Of a stretch of DNA of 64,000 nucleotides, positions 18,746 to 55,195 are shown one piece after another. The notes under the pieces are model-generated. The model did not search any database. It worked only from the letters and a program-made list of their open reading frames with translations, and was not told the origin of the DNA. The stretch's first letter is position 1; the number at the start of each line of letters is the position of its first letter. The DNA is from Octopus vulgaris (taxonomy: Eukaryota), in the NCBI GenBank assembly GCA_951406725.2, contig OX597815.1, forward strand, positions 112,220,001 through 112,284,000, written 5' to 3'. The translations under genes and the position numbers were made by a program.

Positions 18746-18950
18746 GTTTATAACTGTTCAATTCAATGCGAAATAGGGCAAGTTACTGTTTTTATGACTA
18801 CTATATAGGGTACACATGTAACAAACGCACATACACGCATACAAACGCACACGCACATGTATATATTCCTCTATTCTTTAACGTTTTTTAGTCATTTTAC
18901 TCTGGTCATGCTAGAGCACCGCAAACATATACATATCTGTATATATATAT

Positions 18951-19352
18951 ATAGTGAAGGGAAGAAATGGAGCCGAACGAAGATTCTACAAAATTCCTTT
19001 TTATTATTTTCTACACATATTTCAAAGGCTGCAAATTCCCAAATTCGGATTGAATAAGGAGACCATTCTGCAGCTTTCTCTTCAGGAAAATCCAGGAATT
19101 TAAAATCTCAAAACAAATGCGCAGCAAGCTTTTCGAACAAAACGCTCCCTAGGAGCCCATGGTAAAAATCTTTTACTCCATTTCTTCCCTGCACTAAATA
19201 TATAAAACTTTAATTATCCGCGCTAAAGCACGGGGGCGAAACCCCATGGTCGTAACCTCAACCGTGTCTTTTCTGGTGTGATTTTTGCTACACAGGTATC
19301 GGTTAAATTTTGAATAATCCGTAACAAGATAATTCATTTATCCATTTCATTA
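18951..19352. mobile_element. solo Naiad-type pLTR fragment with internal inversion; HHR at 19007-19090 (-)
   Basis: 18951-19168 matches 49135-49350 directly and ~19175-19352 matches 48982-49160 inverted. HHR TTTTC-CTGAAGA-stem II-GAAA-TATGTG-TA-GAAAA. Confidence 0.8.
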
Positions 19353-19381
19353 AATGTATATATATATATGTATATATATAC

Positions 19382-19440
<59 letters not shown>

Positions 19441-23689: not shown

Positions 23690-24634
<945 letters not shown>

Positions 24635-32184: not shown

Positions 32185-35100
32185 TAGTTTTCTTTTTATA
32201 GCGTGCTTTCACTTCACTACCGAGCGCAGCTCTGTGTGCCTTGGGTATGTGCTGTGATTTGTTGTAATGCTCTGATGGTTATTGTATGGAAAGTGTTCTG
32301 CGTAGGATGTGTGCAGTGCCTAGTAGTGCAATTTCTGTATGTTATATGTTTGTAAGTCCTGGTGTTTTTGTTATGTATTTGTCTGAATATTTTTTTATCA
32401 TGCCTAATGCACCTACTATCATAGGGATTGTTTCTGTTTTTAGATTCCACATTCTGGTTACCTCTATTTCCAGGTCTTTGTATTTTGAAAGTTTCTCCAT
32501 TTCTTTTAGAGGCACGTTGTCATCTGCCGGTATTGATACATCAATTAGAAAGCATTTTTTTCTTCATGATCTCTGACAACTATATCTGGTCTGTTGGCCT
32601 TAATTTCTCTATCTGTGTGTATTGGCATATCTCAGAGTATGGTCGCTTTCTCGTTATCTGTAACCTTTTCTGGTGTGTGCCTATACCATCTTTTTTCTGT
32701 TGTTATTCCATAATGTTGGCATAGCTTCCAGTGTATATAGGTCCCAACTCTGTCGTCTCTGTGAATATATTCCTTCTTACACAGGACTGGGCAGCCAGAG
32801 ATAATATGATTTATTGTTTCTTGTCCATCTCCACATATTCTGCAGTTACTTGTTATATTTCTTTTCATTACATGTTTTTGGTAATTTCTGGTAGGGAGGC
32901 TTTGGTCTTGTGCTGCAATTAAAAATCCCTCTGTCTCTGCTTTGAGTCCTGAGCTTCTCAACCATTGTTGCGATTTTTCTTTGTCTATTTCTTTTGCATT
33001 TAGTTTAGTCCAGTATTTACCATGAAGGGGCTTTTCTTGCCATCGTTTTATCACAGTTCTTTGCTGTTCTATTTTTAGTTTGGATTTCATTTGTTTTATA
33101 GCTTTTGTTGTTTCTTCATCTTCTTCTTATTCTTCTTCATATTTGTTAGGTGGTATGATTTCTTGTTTGTATTTGTCAGCTTCCTTAAATACTGAGAACA
33201 GTTCTTTGTTTTGCTCGTGTTTTGAAGCTATTTGTATCAGTTTTCCTTCCTTCTGAAGTAGATATTTTTGCAGTCCTATGGTGGTTATTTTATAGTAGTT
33301 TTCCAGCTGTATAAGGCCTCTACCACCTTCTATACGTTGTATATATAGTCTTTCTATGTCAGATTTTGGGTGATGCATCCTAGATCCTGTCATTATTTTT
33401 ATTGTTTTCCTATCTATTTTGGTCAGTTCATTTAGTGTCCAGTTAAGGATATCGTAGCTGTAACTTATAACTGGGGCAGCTAAAGTGTTAATACCTATTA
33501 TCTTGTTTTTAGCATTGAGCTCTGTTTTTAGTATTGATCTAACACGTCTATAATATTCTTTTTTATTTTCTCTTTCATTTGTGTGTGTTGTATCTTATCT
33601 AGTTCATGGATTCCTAAGTATTTGTAAGTTTGGCTTTGGTCTAATTCTTTTATTTCATTGGTTTTATCTAGTGTTTTGTTGCTACTCTTAACTAGTTTTC
33701 CTCTTTTCAGGGTTACTTTGGCGCATTTTTCTAATCCAAATTTCATATATATTTCTTTGGTAAATCCATGAACTGTCTTTAATAGTGTTTCTAGCTGTTT
33801 GTCATTTGCAGCGTATAGTTTTAGGTCATCCATATATAAAAGGTCGCTGATGGTTTTGCCGTAACATTTATATCCGCATCCAGTTCTATTTAGCATATCA
33901 GATAGAGGTGACAGTGCCAAGCAGAAAAGGAGTGGAGAGAGCGTGTCTCCCTGGAATATTCCTCTTCTAATGGAGATGGCTTTGGGTTTCATGAGTCCCT
34001 CTTTTGTTTGGAGATGTAGCACTGTTGGCCATTTATTCATAGAGTGTCCTATGGATTTTATAATTGTTGGTGCTACATTGTTAATGGCTAGTGTTTCGAG
34101 GATCCATGTTTGAGGGATGCTATCAAACGCCTATTTGTAGTCGATCCAGGCCATACTGAGGCCTTTCTTCTTTCTGTGGCTGTCTTCAGTTATGGCTTTA
34201 TTAATCATTAGTTGATCTTTACAGCCATATGAGCCTTTGCGGCATCCTTTCTGCTCTTCTGGAAACAGGTTGTTTTCGTCCAGGTGCTTGTTCAGCCTTT
34301 GCGATATCACTGCAGCAAATGCCTTCTACATTGTAGGGAGACAGGTTATTGGTCTGTAGTTTTCTGGTTTTGCTGTCTCATTTGATTTAGGAATTACGAT
34401 GGTTTTCCCTTCGTAAGCCATTGAGGGATTGTCTCTGGCTCTGCTAGTATGCTGTTAAAGTTTTCAGCCAGCTTTTTGTGCATTCCTGTTAGATATTCCA
34501 ACCAGAGGTTGGGGATCTTGTTATGCCCAGGTGCCTTCCAGTTGCTTAGTCTTTGCAGTGCCTGGGTGACCTCTTCAGTTGTTATGGGGGTCCAAATTTG
34601 CTCAGATGCTGAGTTTGTTGGTTTGATACATCTTTTTTTTGGTTGTTCGTTCGCCGACCATATTTTTCTCCAGAATTCTTCCACTTCTTCTGCCGTTGGT
34701 GCTGCAGTGACTTCTATTTTATTTTTGCCAAGTTCTTGGTAGAACTTTTTGTGGTTGGAGTTGAACTTTTTGTTTTGTTCAAAGAAGCGCTGGCGTTTCT
34801 CGTACCGGCGGATCCTTTGTGCTTTGGCAAGGATATCTTGCTTCAGCTTTTCTTTTATCTCAGGTAAATCTTTTTCTCTGATGTTATATTTGCGGAGTAT
34901 TTTTGTTTTCTTTTTGTTGCTCAGTAGCGTTGATTGTCTACTGATTTCATTAAGAATCGACAGATCTTTTCTCATTTTTTGTATTTTGTTTTGGATGTTA
35001 TTTATCCACAGGGTTTGTTTGGGTGGTGGTACTCCTGTTTGGATGGGTTTGATTGAGTATCCAGCTTCTTTTGTGGCTGCAGTGGCTGCTGCGTATACTA

Positions 35101-36295
35101 AGTCATTTAGCTTAGTGATATCGCTTTTTTTTTCAGTGGCTATTAGTTCAGTGACGGCTAGGTTTATGCTGTTTATAATTGGTGTTGTTGTTTCGTCTAT
35201 TTTGATTTTTGGGAGATATGGTCGGTGGCCCATTTTGAGCTTTGTGGTTTTCAATTCTTTGATTATTTTACTTTTTATATTATCATAATCATTAGGCTCC
35301 CCTTTGTTGTCTCTAAGTTTTAGATTTGTGTCGCTTTCTTTCTTAATTATATGTTTGTTTGCCGTGTTTTGGCTTGCTGTTTGTCGTGTATTATTATGCA
35401 TCCTTACGGTCTGGGTTTGTTGTTTTTTATTTATATCGTGTTTGTTGGGAATGTTACGTTTGTTTTCGTGTTTTACTGTTTCAGTGTTTATATTAATGGG
35501 CATCGTTGTGTGGCTTCTATCTACATTTTCCTGGTGTATTTTTTCTTTTAAATGTTCTATTTCAATCTCTGATATTTTGTTTTGCTTTGAGGATGTATCT
35601 TCGTACGTTAGCTATTTTATTAGGGTTCATTGCTGTATCCAAGTCTATATTTATGTTATATTCCTTCCATATTTTATATGTATTTGTTGTTGTGTTTACA
35701 TATTTGGGGTAGAGCACTGCTGTGAAATATGCGTGTAGGATAGAAATGTATTCCTCACGTGTCCCTTTATGTATTTTGGGTTTTATCTGCGGGACATGAG
35801 GAACAACGTCCGGCCCATTATTTTGACGGTCGTCATTTTCGTAGGGTACCGGTCCGTTCATTTCTGTTGTCACATTGTTTTGCACGTGTAGTTTTTCGTA
35901 CATTTTGTGTTGTAAGTTTAAGGTACGTACCTCCCGATTGTTATTCTTGGGTTGAATAATATGGGTGGTATTTAATTTCTTCGTAGTTCCTTTGTACATG
36001 GTGTTTGGGGTCGGGGATTATCTGGTGCTGATTGATCGTAATGATCCACGCATGTTTACATGTGTCGTGTTAGAGTTGGAGATGATATCGGGTCAAAATA
36101 CATCATTTAGTTTCGAAAATAGTAATAAATGTTAATGAGCATTACTTACTCGGGCACAGTCCAATCCTTTGTTAGTAAATCTTTGGTTTCATACGATGTC
36201 CTTGTTTTCGATGTTTGTGGATAGATTTCAGAGCTCTGTTGTATCGTTCTTACATCTTAAACGTCCCCCGGTGTTCTCTTAAACGTCCCCCGGTG

Positions 36296-48984: not shown

Positions 48985-49190
48985 AAATGGATAAATGAAT
49001 TATCTTGTTACGGATTATTCAAAATGTAACCGATACCTGGGTAGCAAAAATCACAACAGAAAAAATACGGTTGAGGTTACGACCATGGGGTGTTGCAACC
49101 GTGCCCTAGCGCGGATAATTGAAGTTTTATATATTTAGTGAAGGGAAGAAATGGAGCTGAACGAAGATTCTACAAAATTCCTTTTTATTA

Positions 49191-49274
49191 TTTTCTACAC
49201 ATGTTTCAAAGGCTGCAAATTTCCAAATTCGGATTGAATAAGGAGACCATTTTGCAGCTTTCTCTTCAGGAAAA
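49191..49274 (-). ncRNA. type-I hammerhead ribozyme in pLTR
   Basis: TTTTC-CTGAAGA-GAAAGCTGCAAA...TTTGCAGCCTTT-GAAA-CATGTG-TA-GAAAA. Confidence 0.78.
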
Positions 49275-49879
49275 ACCAGGAATATAAATCTCCAAAACAA
49301 ATGCACAGCAGGCTATTCGAACAAAACGCTCCCTAGGAGCCCATGGTAAGGCACAAACTGTCTCTCAATGTGCGTTGACGTCAGGGTGTGTGAAGGCCGA
49401 CGAAAAAGTCCGTTGAAATAAATCGAGGTCAAACTGCGGTTAAATTTGGTAGGGGAAGAATTCAAGAAAAGCAAAGAGTGTGAATATATTCTGTATAACT
49501 ACTGTTAATGTTCCAATGGTTTTAAGAATGAAAGCTATCTTATTTGGGTGTGAGAAACTACTTACATGTATGCGTGTGTGCGCTTGTGTATGTGTGGCAG
49601 TATGTTAGGAAGCAGCTAGTGGGAAAATATATTGCAGATATTGTAGGTCAAGCGGCCGATAAAAGCCTGTGTCTGTGTGTTCGTCTGTGGTCAGTTTATA
49701 CACAGATGACTTGTTAAACAAGGGGAGTATAATCCCTGATATTGTTTCTAAATAAGTAGCAGATCATACGCTAAAAGGGGAGTAATTTCCCTTTACAAAT
49801 TTAATTCAAAATTTTTTTCAAAATTTTTCCCAAATTTTTTTCTTTTCTTAGGACATCAAGGTGTTAATTATCTTAGGCC

Positions 49880-50690
49880 TCAATTGTATGCAAGAAATGT
49901 GTGCCGCCTCCAATGGGGACATCTGAAAGAGTTTTGCAAAATCGCGTTAACTAGCCGCCCACGGGCGAACAAAATGTGAAAAAGTTCAGAGTTGCAGAGA
50001 TTACAGATTCTTTTGCCTCTATCAAACGGTACAGACACCGATAAAATCGACCATTCCAGTCTAAATGCTGAATTCGCGTTCTTCAAACGCCAGATCAATT
50101 TACTTAGTCCGGTCGCGTGTTGTTTTCTAAAATCGCGAAATGTTGTGAAGTGGTTCGATATTCTCACGGCCAATTTTGATGATGACGCTCCGATATACAA
50201 GTAGACATCTGATTCAGTATAAACTCTGCATTGGTAAATGGCATTTCTAATCTTGGAATTACTAGATAAGAACCTTATTCTATTGGGATTGGCTTCAGAT
50301 ATTAATACGGCGTTCTTATTACTATGATGATTGCGAGAACTGCGGTTGTCTTCGACATTATACACCCCATTATCAATACTATTTAATGGAATATCACCTG
50401 TATATTCCCTGGCACTGACATCGCTGTGATTGCTAATGTCTGTGATGCTACTGTTGTCAAAACCGTTGCTAAGAGTGTTATTGGGACTCTCTACATTAAT
50501 GACTCGGACAGTGCTCTCATCCCCATTACCATTACTAACGCTAGTGTCGTCACCATTGCTCCTATCCTTATTCCTATTATTAACTCCATGGCTGGTATGG
50601 AGATTGCTAATCTCTGTGCCGGTTCTATTATCATTATTATTATTATTATTACTGCGCGTTATTCTGCGTATCCGACCGAGGGTGAGAGGG
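49880..50690 (-). pseudogene. PLE GIY-YIG endonuclease domain with long Asn/Ser-rich linker (open frame 50690-49880)
   Basis: AIYQCRV..LYIG..RISNH..F..TGLSKLIWRLK..WSIL..CNLCNSE..I..LVN..CPH. After one frameshift upstream: FPRNSRYY..VRIAFSNTKNLSQIISSHNNKL (Naiad-like). Confidence 0.85.
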
Positions 50691-51256
50691 TCTTATTTAG
50701 CAGCTTATTGTTATGGGAGGAAATTATCTGTGAGAGATTCTTAGTGTTGGAGAAGGCTATCCTAACTTTGTGTGAGTTAACAGTGGCGTAATACCTGGAA
50801 TTTCTGGGAAAATTACTAAGTTATCTGTGTATAAACTGACCACAGACGAACACACAGACACAGGCTTTTATCGGCCGCTTGACCTACAATATCTGCAATA
50901 TATTTTACCACTAGCTGCTTCCTAACATACTGCCACACATACACAAGCGCACACACACATACATGTAAGTAGTTTCTCACACCCAAATAAGATAGCTTTC
51001 ATTCTTAAAACAATTCGAACATTAACAGTAGTTATACAGAATATATTCACACTCATTGGTTTTCTTGAATTCTTCCCCTACCAAATTTAACCGCAGTTTG
51101 ACCTCGATTTATTCCAACGGACTTTTTCGTCGGCCTCCACACGCCCTGACGACAACGCACATTGAGAGACAGTTTTGTGCCTAACCATGGGCTCCTAGGG
51201 AGCGTTTTGTTCGAATAGCCTGCTGCGCATTTGTTTTGGAGATTTATATTCCTGGT

Positions 51257-51340
51257 TTTTCCTGAAGAGAAAGCTGCAAAGTGGTCTCCTTATTCAATCC
51301 GAATTTGGAAATTTGCAGCCTTTGAAACATATGTACAAAA
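51257..51340 (+). ncRNA. type-I hammerhead ribozyme in inverted pLTR
   Basis: TTTTC-CTGAAGA-stem II-GAAA-CATATG-TA-CAAAA, with palindromic stem III ACATATGT. Confidence 0.75.
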
Positions 51341-51393
51341 TAATAAAAAGGAATTTTGTAGAATCTTCGTTCAGCTCCATTTCTTCCCTTCAC

Positions 51394-51431
<38 letters not shown>

Positions 51432-51690
51432 AAAGAAAATGGTATATACGAGAATTTATTATTAATGACGACAATTGTTGCGAAACATCTAGTATCGATT
51501 CCTCTTGAATGGGACACTCAACAACTGGTGCAGGAGCATCTGATGGTGCAGATGGATTTCGTCGAATAATCAATAAATAAAAACAACTCGTTAAAATGAC
51601 TGTTCTACAATGTAACTTACTGTTTTGTAGAGAGAAGCTACGACGTGTAAACCATTCGTTTTATTATATATATATATATATATATATATA

Positions 51691-51846
51691 CGACGGGCTT
51701 TTGGGGGCCTTCCGTTCACTCACAAGAATTTGGTCTGCCCGCGGCTATAGTAGATGTCATTTGCCTATGGTCTCATGTAGTGTGACTGAACTTCGAACCA
51801 TGTGGTCGGGAAGCAAGCTTCTTGTCACAGAGTCACTCCTGCGCCT
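51691..51846 (-). mobile_element. family A SINE, 5' half
   Basis: CGACGGGCTT..TTGGTCTGCCCGCGGCTATAGTAG..CACTCCTGCGCCT. Confidence 0.75.
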
Positions 51847-51862
51847 ACAAATACATACATAC

Positions 51863-51944: not shown

Positions 51945-52220
51945 GGCCTCATTTACTGCATTAAATGCAACCTATGCGGGATGCTGTATGTAGGACAGAC
52001 GGGACGCCGGTTGTCCGACCGATTCACAGAACATTTGAGGGACGTTCGCCTACACTTTTTTTCTCCCGTCGCACGCCACTTCCGCTCGGCCAGCCATTCC
52101 CTAGATGACATCTCAGTGTTTGGTCTCGCCCCACACAATGGTCGTCCACTTTCTAGGCTCCACTTGTAGCAACGCTACATCTTCACCCTACAAACCACTA
52201 CCCCACACGGACTTAACACA
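51945..52220 (+). pseudogene. Neptune-type PLE GIY-YIG endonuclease fragment
   Basis: GLIYCIKCNLCGMLYVGQTGRRLSDRFTEHLRDV..PVARHF..HS..RLHL*QRYIFTLQTTTPHGLN. Confidence 0.88.
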
Positions 52221-52254
52221 GCCCCCTCCTCCTAAGGTTTTTTTCCGGATAAAC

Positions 52255-52557
52255 ACCCCCCACACACACACCTACCTACATCCCACACGCCTGTTTACAC
52301 ACACACATACGGATACACATCTACGTACACACATTCACACATTTAATCACACATACTTATAGACATACATGCACACACTAACATACAAACCAACATGCAC
52401 ATACATACACACATACATAGATACACACACACATACATACTTACACACACACACACACACATACATACATACATACATACATACACACATACATATGCAC
52501 ATACATACACACACACACACACACACATCGCACATACATACTTCACACATCTATACT

Positions 52558-52589
<32 letters not shown>

Positions 52590-52983
52590 TACGCACACAC
52601 ACATACATACACACATACCTACACATGCACACCTTTACACGAATGCACACACACATACACCTATTTGCACCCAGGCAGCCCCCCCCCCTCTTTTCTGCTT
52701 TCTGGTTTTGGTTGATGGATCCTCGGTTCCCGTGGAGCGGGTTGTTTGGGGGCCCCCGCGCGCGCACGCCTTGGCGCGTGCTGGGTTTTGGTCGGCCCCA
52801 TGGGCTTGCGTTGCATTGTTTGTGTGTTGTGTGTGTGAGCGTGCTCCGTGTGTGTGGGCGTGCTTCGGGTGTGTGCGTGCGTATGTATACATACATACCC
52901 ACACACACGCATGCATCCCTACCCACATACATACACGCACACCCACATACATACACGCACACCTACTCACACACACACTTACA

Positions 52984-53015
<32 letters not shown>

Positions 53016-54182
53016 TACATAGATACACACACATACCTACTTCAGACATACACACACACAGACATACACCCATACACTCACACTCACACGCATACACACA
53101 CACACACATACACACGCACACGCACACATACACACACACACACCTACATACATACATTACACTTGTACACACACACACTTACATTCATACACACACACAC
53201 CTACACAGCCATACCTTCACTCATACATACACACATACCTACACACACACACAAACACTCACAGACACACACCCATACATACATAAACCTATACACACAC
53301 GCCTACACACATACATACACACATACATGCACACACACATACATACATACATACACCCACACACATACACATACACATACTTACATACTCCTATACGCAC
53401 ATACATACACACAGACATACACACATACACACTCACACATACATACACACACATACTTACACACACACTCGCCTGCACGCGCACACACATGCATGACAAA
53501 CACCCATGCACTCACACTCACACACACACCAACATATACATGCACACGCACACATACACGCAGACACACACCTACACTCCTACACACATACATACGCACC
53601 TACATACACATACACACGCACACACACGCACACACACGCATACATACATACATTACATACGTACACACACACCTACATACACATGCATACACACACACAC
53701 AAACACACACGGACACACCCATACATACATACATACACCTATACACACACGCCTACACACCTACATACACACACATGCATACACACACATACACGGACAC
53801 ACCCATACATACTTACATACATACACCTATACACACACGCTTACACACCTACATACACACACATGCATACACACACACACATGTACGCACATACACACAC
53901 ATATACGCACATACATATATACATACACACATGCACACTCACATACACACACACATACGCACATGCATACGCATACACGCATACATGCATACATGCATAC
54001 ACACACACACGCACGTACACATACACATACATACACCCATACAAATACATGCATCCTACACACACAGACATACACACTCACACATACATACACACACACA
54101 CTCACTCACACACCTGCATGTACGCGCACACACATGCACATACACACACTTCCACACACACACACGTACATACATACACACT

Positions 54183-54215
<33 letters not shown>

Positions 54216-54340
54216 GGACATACATCTATATACACACATATACACACATATACTTACATACATTCATCGGACACACTGACACCCAGACTTACACACAGAC
54301 ACACTCACACATCCACACACATACATACTTACCCACACAC
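52255..54340. repeat. degenerate (CA)/(CATA)-rich low-complexity tract, ~2 kb, interrupted at 52670-52882
   Basis: Directly visible; source of the 641-aa and 525-aa His/Thr ORFs. Confidence 0.95.
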
Positions 54341-54581
54341 TCGCAGGCGCGCGCACATACACGCTTGTTCACGTTCGCGCACGCATACACGCATGCATGC
54401 ACCACGCTCGTGGTTGACCGACTAGATCTCCTGTACGTATCTGGGGCCGGCGCGTGTCTTTGGGTTCTCCCACGCCTGTCGCCGCGGGACCACTCTTCCA
54501 TCTTCCCCTTTCCCCCCTCTCCGCTGCAGTTTTTTTTTTCCTTAATGTAGAGACATTAAAAAATCAAATGCAAAGGTTATT

Positions 54582-54634
54582 TGAGAACGTACGTTTCAAG
54601 ATTAGTCAAAATCGACACTTCTATCATCAGCTCA
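54582..54634 (-). ncRNA. type-I hammerhead ribozyme
   Basis: TGAG-CTGATGA-TAGAAGTGTCGATTTTGACTAATCTT-GAAA-CGTACG-TT-CTCA, with palindromic stem III ACGTACGT. Confidence 0.72.
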
Positions 54635-54851
54635 GAACTCCCTGGTTTGGATTTGAAAACACTGAAAGTGGGAGCATACCCTTTCGGCTTGTTATCACCT
54701 CTGAAGATCTGCTCAAAACTAACAGTGCCAGCAAATTCAAATATGCAAGCGAAGAATTTCTGCTCTCCCCTTTCCACCAGCGTGGGTTAAAAACAGCAAA
54801 CACTATGTTTTTTTCGGTAAAATCCGAGGCATTATATAGAGAGAGATGAAT

Positions 54852-55187
54852 TATAATTTCAACAATTGAGGGTAAAATTAATTAATTAATCAATTTTACC
54901 AAGTATTCAGTATACAAAGGGACCATTTAAGGCGAATTCAAATTATTACATTATATAAAAGGGCTTAGTAAAATAAATTACTTTGCCGCATACTGAACTC
55001 ATTAGAAATAGCAGCTGAAAAAGTTTTTTTAGCTGCTATTTCTAATGAGTTCAGTATGCGGCAAAGTAATTTATTTTACTAAGCCCTTTTATATAATGTA
55101 ATAATTTGAATTCGCCTTAAATGGTCCCTTTGTATACTGAATACTTGGTAAAATTGATTAATTAATTAATTTTACCCTCAATTGTTG

Positions 55188-55195
<8 letters not shown>
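54852..55195. repeat. perfect fold-back palindrome, ~165-bp arms
   Basis: 54852-55016 and 55031-55195 are reverse complements. The arm is a diverged relative of 24003-24155. Confidence 0.95.

Follow-up and report, generated by a model that had tools for sequence, protein, structure and literature searches.

In a few retroviruses, editing of the RNA is known to have left its mark in the DNA. ADAR A-to-G hypermutation of avian retroviral DNA was described in RAV-1 (Felder 1994) and in ALV (Hajjar and Linial 1995), as related in PMC8586724, which also gives T before A as a favoured ADAR context. In hyper-edited inverted Alu RNA, A-to-G accounts for about 97% among detected clusters and a 5' G neighbour is depleted (PMC4365171), and the scars that APOBEC editing has left in genomic retroelements are G-to-A changes made on cDNA (PMC2873906). 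In cephalopods, editing outside neurons is directed at repeats (PMC9068888). Minimal hammerheads occur in the terminal repeats (pLTR) of Penelope-like elements, often together with inverted partial copies (PMC4209133, PMC8557442). A literature search largely outside subscription papers and with supplements excluded turned up no Penelope-like family described as A-to-G-converted, and the searched part of a preprint on animal retrozymes (10.64898/2026.07.22.740005) held neither ADAR nor cephalopods as terms.

The locus considered here lies in a 64,000-nt stretch of Octopus vulgaris DNA (the window) and is an adenine-poor patch (52681–52882, + strand). The patch is part of a repeat with several genomic copies and sits in the 3' region of a Penelope-like element that is truncated. 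The element is represented by the 5'-truncated C-terminus of a GIY-YIG endonuclease (51945–52235, +), which contains an in-frame stop at 52167–52169 and ends in TTPHGLNTAPSS-stop. It matches PF01541 at E 6e-4 and 20.5 bits, under the Pfam cut-off of 22.6, and shows 57–63% identity to two proteins, one with an RT domain; among relatives with named domains the best, an RT+GIY-YIG protein, is 57% identical. The sequence-only reading was thus right to place this fragment on the strand of the patch. A further C-terminus (RPHGL-like) hidden in the patch itself was rejected, its best scores over 24 tests being reached by 2–13 of 150 shuffles and one of the comparators being out of frame. A protein search of metagenome contigs for Penelope-like elements gave two loci, one (L002) dismissed as a chance bacterial-like match and the other (L001) showing no gain from G/A ambiguity when the hidden C-terminus was sought.

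Behind the fragment, in 3' UTR position, sequence and TRF place a degenerate CA/CATA microsatellite (tract A, 52260–52660, +). Arm 1 of an inverted repeat follows (52705–52888, +, from alignment and duplex prediction), within which a TG tract (52810–52888, +) is an inverted unit of the CA tract. A 1.4-kb A-rich loop, CA tract B (52890–54320, +; TRF; 594 A in 1431 nt), separates it from arm 2 (54321–54506, +), a second A-poor, CpG-rich patch that, reverse-complemented, is about 63% identical to arm 1. A pyrimidine tract read from the sequence (54507–54539, +) terminates in CAG and T10 and is probably the end of the unit. A 709-aa stop-free frame across much of this region (52421–54550) was ascribed to composition and rejected as a gene.

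Other repeats surround the unit. An inverted repeat of about 590 bp (49128–49717 and 50813–51403) is 96–98% complementary with strand-symmetric mismatches, has an extra arm copy at 18927–19402, and encloses a 270-aa frame (49880–50692, −) that by eye is GIY-YIG-like with a C-terminal Cys/His motif and had no Pfam match at E 0.01. At 54852–55195 there is a near-perfect palindrome of 171 bp with a 2-nt spacer, 99% complementary. A 181-bp inverted repeat at 23692–24332 bears a hammerhead-core-like motif on each strand (24267, +; 23757, −), resembling the dual opposite hammerhead motifs described for Penelope-like elements. A decayed non-LTR retrotransposon with an RVT_1 domain (32200–36017, −) is the source of the other A-poor segments of the + strand, and a SINE-like repeat at 51690–51850 has at least six further copies in the window (97–131 nt, 67–79% identity).

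The 202 nt of the patch comprise 76 G, 68 T, 51 C and 7 A, with 18 CpG, and our recount agrees with the earlier observation of 7 A in about 200 nt of CpG-rich sequence. At 3.5% A this is the lowest A count of any 200-nt segment in the 64 kb, the runners-up holding 23 and 25. T is nearly as abundant as G and the last third is the TG tract; an inverted TG fragment, which the sequence-only reading had named as refuting its proposal, thus makes up the 3' third. The sequence-only reading had also remarked that the surviving A's follow only G or C. The counts stand (four after G, three after C, none after T or A), and the pattern is weak, with p of about 0.04 by composition or shuffling; at least four GA occur in 24% of shuffles, and GA enrichment as such is not significant. 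Folded by itself the patch has a z of −1.3, a value matched by 17 of 200 shuffles. Rfam returned only sub-threshold microsatellite and hairpin matches and no tRNA, and ARAGORN found 0 genes. BLASTN of either arm against the SINE copies of the window gave no match, and a tRNA-derived SINE fragment was rejected as the identity of the patch, as it resembles neither the SINEs of the window nor any tRNA.

What the sequence-only reading overlooked is that the patch has an inverted partner. It was picked at 54324–54489 on the − strand by a window scan with asymmetric scoring, within a search that used 12 asymmetric scorings and one neutral; the T>C scoring reached a higher raw score (83.5) yet found only plain TG microsatellite, and the A>G scoring gave arm 2. 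Neutral alignment of arm 1 (52710–52888) with arm 2 (54321–54506) has 120 identical columns of 192, a score that none of 1000 shuffles attained, and arm 2 was the best of about 2550 segments in all four scans. BLASTN of the arms against the window returned microsatellite matches only. The arms have the two lowest values of A/(A+T) among GC-rich segments of the window (0.10 and 0.25; the next is 0.35). A stretch of the CA loop (53448–53495) repeats the start of arm 2 in direct orientation at 83%, already with CpG runs, and differs from it without A>G bias.

As RNA, the roughly 185-bp inverted repeat, A-poor on the + strand in both arms, is predicted to pair well. The + strand duplex is computed at −221.8 kcal/mol, against −134 ± 7 for shuffled sequence (0 of 200 as low), and comprises 148 pairs of which 26 are G·U; the − strand duplex is predicted at −150.3 kcal/mol against −107 ± 6.5 (0 of 200). 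When the whole of 52650–54560 is folded, arm 1 is predicted to engage 75 of its 186 bases with arm 2 and another 75 with the CA tract. A double-stranded partner on the same strand, which ADAR requires, is thus present for the patch as a predicted duplex; both this duplex test and the neighbour rule applied above follow PMC4365171.

A Markov model of the window that allows a single hidden base conversion ranked A>G first of 12 conversions for the patch, at +69 bits against +28 for the next (A>C); under A>G the SINE and Penelope-like controls gained −3 and −7 or less. Dinucleotide shuffles equalled the gain for the patch in 54 of 60 cases. A>G was not the best model for arm 2, which T>C or A>C fitted as well or better.

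Mismatches between the arms were classed over ten neutral scorings. They total 48–63, made up of 23–26 G·U, 5–6 A·C, 18–27 pyrimidine–pyrimidine and 2–4 purine–purine, against 24, 33, 29 and 26, respectively, pooled over eight other inverted repeats of the window. In one arm alignment the ratio of G·U to A·C is 24:4, versus the pooled 24:33 (Fisher p 1.5e-4), which makes the strand asymmetry a genuine one; the scarcity of A·C mostly restates the A-poverty, since arm composition leads one to expect a share of 0.08. The transition share between the arms (0.51–0.59) is that of the controls (0.51; p 0.87), about half of the mismatches are pyrimidine–pyrimidine, and A>G dominance was not found among them. 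In one alignment the 36 A-losses of arm 1 relative to arm 2 went to G in 13 cases, to T in nine, to C in five and to a gap in nine; from arm 2, the only three-letter partner within the window, the patch differs by A>T, A>C and gaps as often as by A>G. Candidate edited sites follow G at 4–7 of 12–15 places in arm 1 and at 0 of 11 in arm 2. In the predicted duplex, the partners of arm 1 G's are 59 C and 13 T, and because C stands opposite most of them arm 2 is not an unedited template.

Public sequencing data bear on whether the patch is unique. There were 24 runs listed for 52660–54900, and 14 of them, under four organism labels, contain 0.28–0.70 of its words, the richest run having 0.70. Logan contigs of four runs (X1, X4, X5 and X6, from three studies and two organism labels, three of them DNA by guess and one of unknown kind) were compared with 52600–52950 at 80% identity or more; six RNA runs with a word share of 0.05–0.07 were left out. 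The comparison covered arm 1, and at this threshold parents below 80% identity (at about 70%, for instance) would be invisible. The figures derive from 32 of 9265 pieces, 40 of 45 difference rows and 24 of 480 loose ends listed, and contig depth is not copy number. All 30 bins were covered in all four runs. The pieces listed include some of 59–166 nt that agree with the core and with both CA junctions at about 85–97% identity and depths of about 10–793, and one 59-nt piece has no differing letter but 12 gaps. Deep pieces among those listed cover 52723–52812 (three differences, depth 327), 52637–52734 (depth 359) and 52807–52898 (depth 793); none of those listed spans the whole patch. The ORF and the patch are seen linked in this one copy, the matching contig pieces being 60–170 nt long.

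Contigs with the same G's in all four runs place the patch in a multi-copy genomic repeat family. These relatives, at least 80% alike, carry the same G-rich sequence, which the sequence-only reading had itself named as a refutation, and a uniquely edited patch is not supported. Of the variable places in the difference rows listed, G>A accounts for 4 of 32, 4 of 35, 3 of 30 and 3 of 27 in the four runs; over the 19 G's of 52696–52748 no G>A difference reaches 5%, at a summed depth of about 3e3 to 2e5. The commonest differences among the rows listed are T>C (8 places) and C>T (7–8). At 52766, where the window has A, G makes up 41–80% of depth, and A52736 is kept as A in a high-depth haplotype with a preceding T, in a T-A-G setting. 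The window letter is absent at 52747 in X1 and X4, at 52786 in X1 and X5, and at 52814 in X5 and X6, and the exact haplotype was therefore seen in none of the four runs. Confirmation in genomic reads was accordingly partial, extending to the family with both its CA junctions and not to the exact haplotype of the window. An unedited or partly edited relative was found neither in the window nor among the contigs at least 80% alike, and a degenerate 30-letter motif had 0 matches in genome contigs and 0 in viral contigs. One loose end, at 52754, among those listed resembles the CA tract with G for A.

With A and G collapsed, 52704–52754 (+) may be read as the decayed remains of a minimal hammerhead whose conserved A's are now G and whose helix II is unconvincing. 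There is no literal match by descriptor and no Rfam hammerhead up to E 1, and an intact minimal hammerhead (core and helices) was not found in the patch, which matches only when A equals G. The collapsed descriptor, which is post hoc and does not require helix II, scores 16 of 19 at 52712 (p 0.045) and has 69 matches of at least 16 across the window. With family letters (C at 52712, G and C at 52742–3, C at 52747) the score by hand is 18 of 19, reached by 2 of 3000 shuffles; these letters are taken from the family contigs jointly. A family haplotype with all of them would look like a hammerhead whose conserved A's have turned to G. The layout lies about 470 nt behind the ORF stop, and the metagenomic locus L001, used as a control, has a literal hammerhead-like motif (17 of 19) behind its own GIY-YIG ORF. 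At 52737–52745 depth drops about tenfold in X5 and X6, most family members ending or diverging near the putative hammerhead core.

There is some reason to think that the patch descends from a Penelope-linked hairpin that ADAR and reverse transcription stripped of its A's long ago and that was then amplified, a tentative and unproven reading that we narrowly prefer to its rivals and would call possible rather than probable. Read-through transcripts across both arms would form a long duplex, within which ADAR would convert A's to inosine, and reverse transcription would fix the inosines as G. Such conversion could have taken place long ago in one founder or over several rounds, after which the converted version would have amplified and diverged further, and the copy in the window would descend from the converted form rather than record the conversion directly. 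Since most G's of arm 1 already face a C in arm 2, the scheme requires either more than a single round or subsequent change. This ADAR imprint is favoured by the coincidence of the A-poor zones with the arms, the excess of G·U over A·C, A>G as the best model and the hammerhead-like G's. Against it stand the ordinary transition share, a pyrimidine–pyrimidine excess that A>G editing does not explain, the unedited A52736 despite its favoured T context, and the absence of a gain over dinucleotide shuffles. The hyperediting originally proposed thus keeps its predicted + strand duplex, its best single conversion and its hammerhead-like haplotype, and loses the single insertion. A bolder form, in which ADAR would act on a transposon lineage as a heritable strand-specific mutator, in an animal that edits heavily, with repeated cycles of editing and retrotransposition stripping the A's, loss of the hammerhead core and amplification in at least two related species, seems unlikely.

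The same anatomy might instead have arisen without ADAR, if the arms were kept paired as RNA or came from a G/T-rich ancestor, with A-poverty as a by-product aided by the inverted CA-tract tail; G·U and pyrimidine–pyrimidine mismatches would survive, and A·C and purine–purine ones would be purged. We hold this to be possible, if doubtful. It accommodates the ordinary transition share and the surplus of pyrimidine–pyrimidine over purine–purine mismatches, as well as a family variation that, in the difference rows listed, lies mainly at C/T (15–16 places) rather than A/G (5–6), and the lack of a signal above dinucleotide composition. The 3.5% A is extreme even for an inverted CA tract, which, judging from the T counts of the CA tracts, would hold 22–35 A per 200 nt, and G at the hammerhead-like A positions is left unexplained.

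An assembly or polishing product, in which a poor long-read call at the fold-back was overwritten by mis-mapped A-poor short reads or arm 2 was garbled, is quite improbable. It would suit the three absent window letters, the lack of a listed piece spanning the patch and the share of words in even the best run, and nanopore accuracy is reported, in part of PMC7229812, to drop at inverted duplicates. Against it, contigs match both CA junctions and the core in all four runs, and the layout therefore exists in real DNA; the other inverted repeats of the window are 86–99% complementary with symmetric mismatches; the missing haplotype could be explained by a different individual or by the search filter; and the A-poor family would need explaining even if the artefact were true.

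Chance likeness plus microsatellite inversion, the patch being an unrelated GC-rich repeat fragment in the CA tract, has little probability. Once the TG tail is left off, the alignment of the core has a score of 58, near the 54–56 found elsewhere in the window under neutral scoring; arm 2 was nevertheless the top match in every scan and beyond every shuffle, the core duplex by itself is predicted at −114.9 against −73.9 ± 6.2 for shuffles, and mutual pairing of the two most A-poor GC-rich segments is unlikely by chance. Least credible, and largely refuted, is the event that the sequence-only reading had proposed, one Penelope-like transcript hyperedited once, reverse-transcribed and inserted here, which the composition, the neighbour pattern and the same-strand duplex partner suit and against which stand the several relatives that share its G's in runs of two organism labels, the mere 13 of 36 A-losses that go to G, and the tendency of one round of editing to stop near half of the A's.

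If the imprint that we prefer is real, germline ADAR activity would be readable and datable from genomes, and the idea that repeat editing acts on transposons, found in part of PMC9068888, would become testable in one multi-copy family. If the arms lost their A's without ADAR, the locus would be a repeat whose hairpin shows strand bias, a more modest finding.

As far as the cited parts of the literature go, the closest parallel in mechanism is avian retroviral hypermutation, with which the patch would share RNA edits fixed by reverse transcription, a one-strand A>G change and the need for a duplex; there the unedited parent is known and A-to-G changes form clusters, whereas in the present case a parent was sought in vain in the window and among contigs at least 80% alike, the element is of the Penelope type, the putatively converted form itself exists in several copies, and transversions make up half of the mismatches between the arms. 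Inverted Alu pairs resemble the arms in that nearby repeats of opposite orientation form a duplex, and in the three-letter logic of detection; their editing is confined to RNA, and neither their A-to-G share nor their 5'-G depletion is reached between the arms. APOBEC scars in retroelements record editing in an integrated copy, as the patch might, with the opposite change and another enzyme. In anatomy the nearest system is the pLTR of Penelope-like elements. There the inverted arm is at the 5' end, and here it lies 1.4 kb downstream; the unit also differs in having G at conserved A's, no clear helix II and two A-poor arms, and it shares with the pLTR a GIY-YIG C-terminus, a microsatellite setting, a 3' hammerhead-like motif and an inverted repeat.
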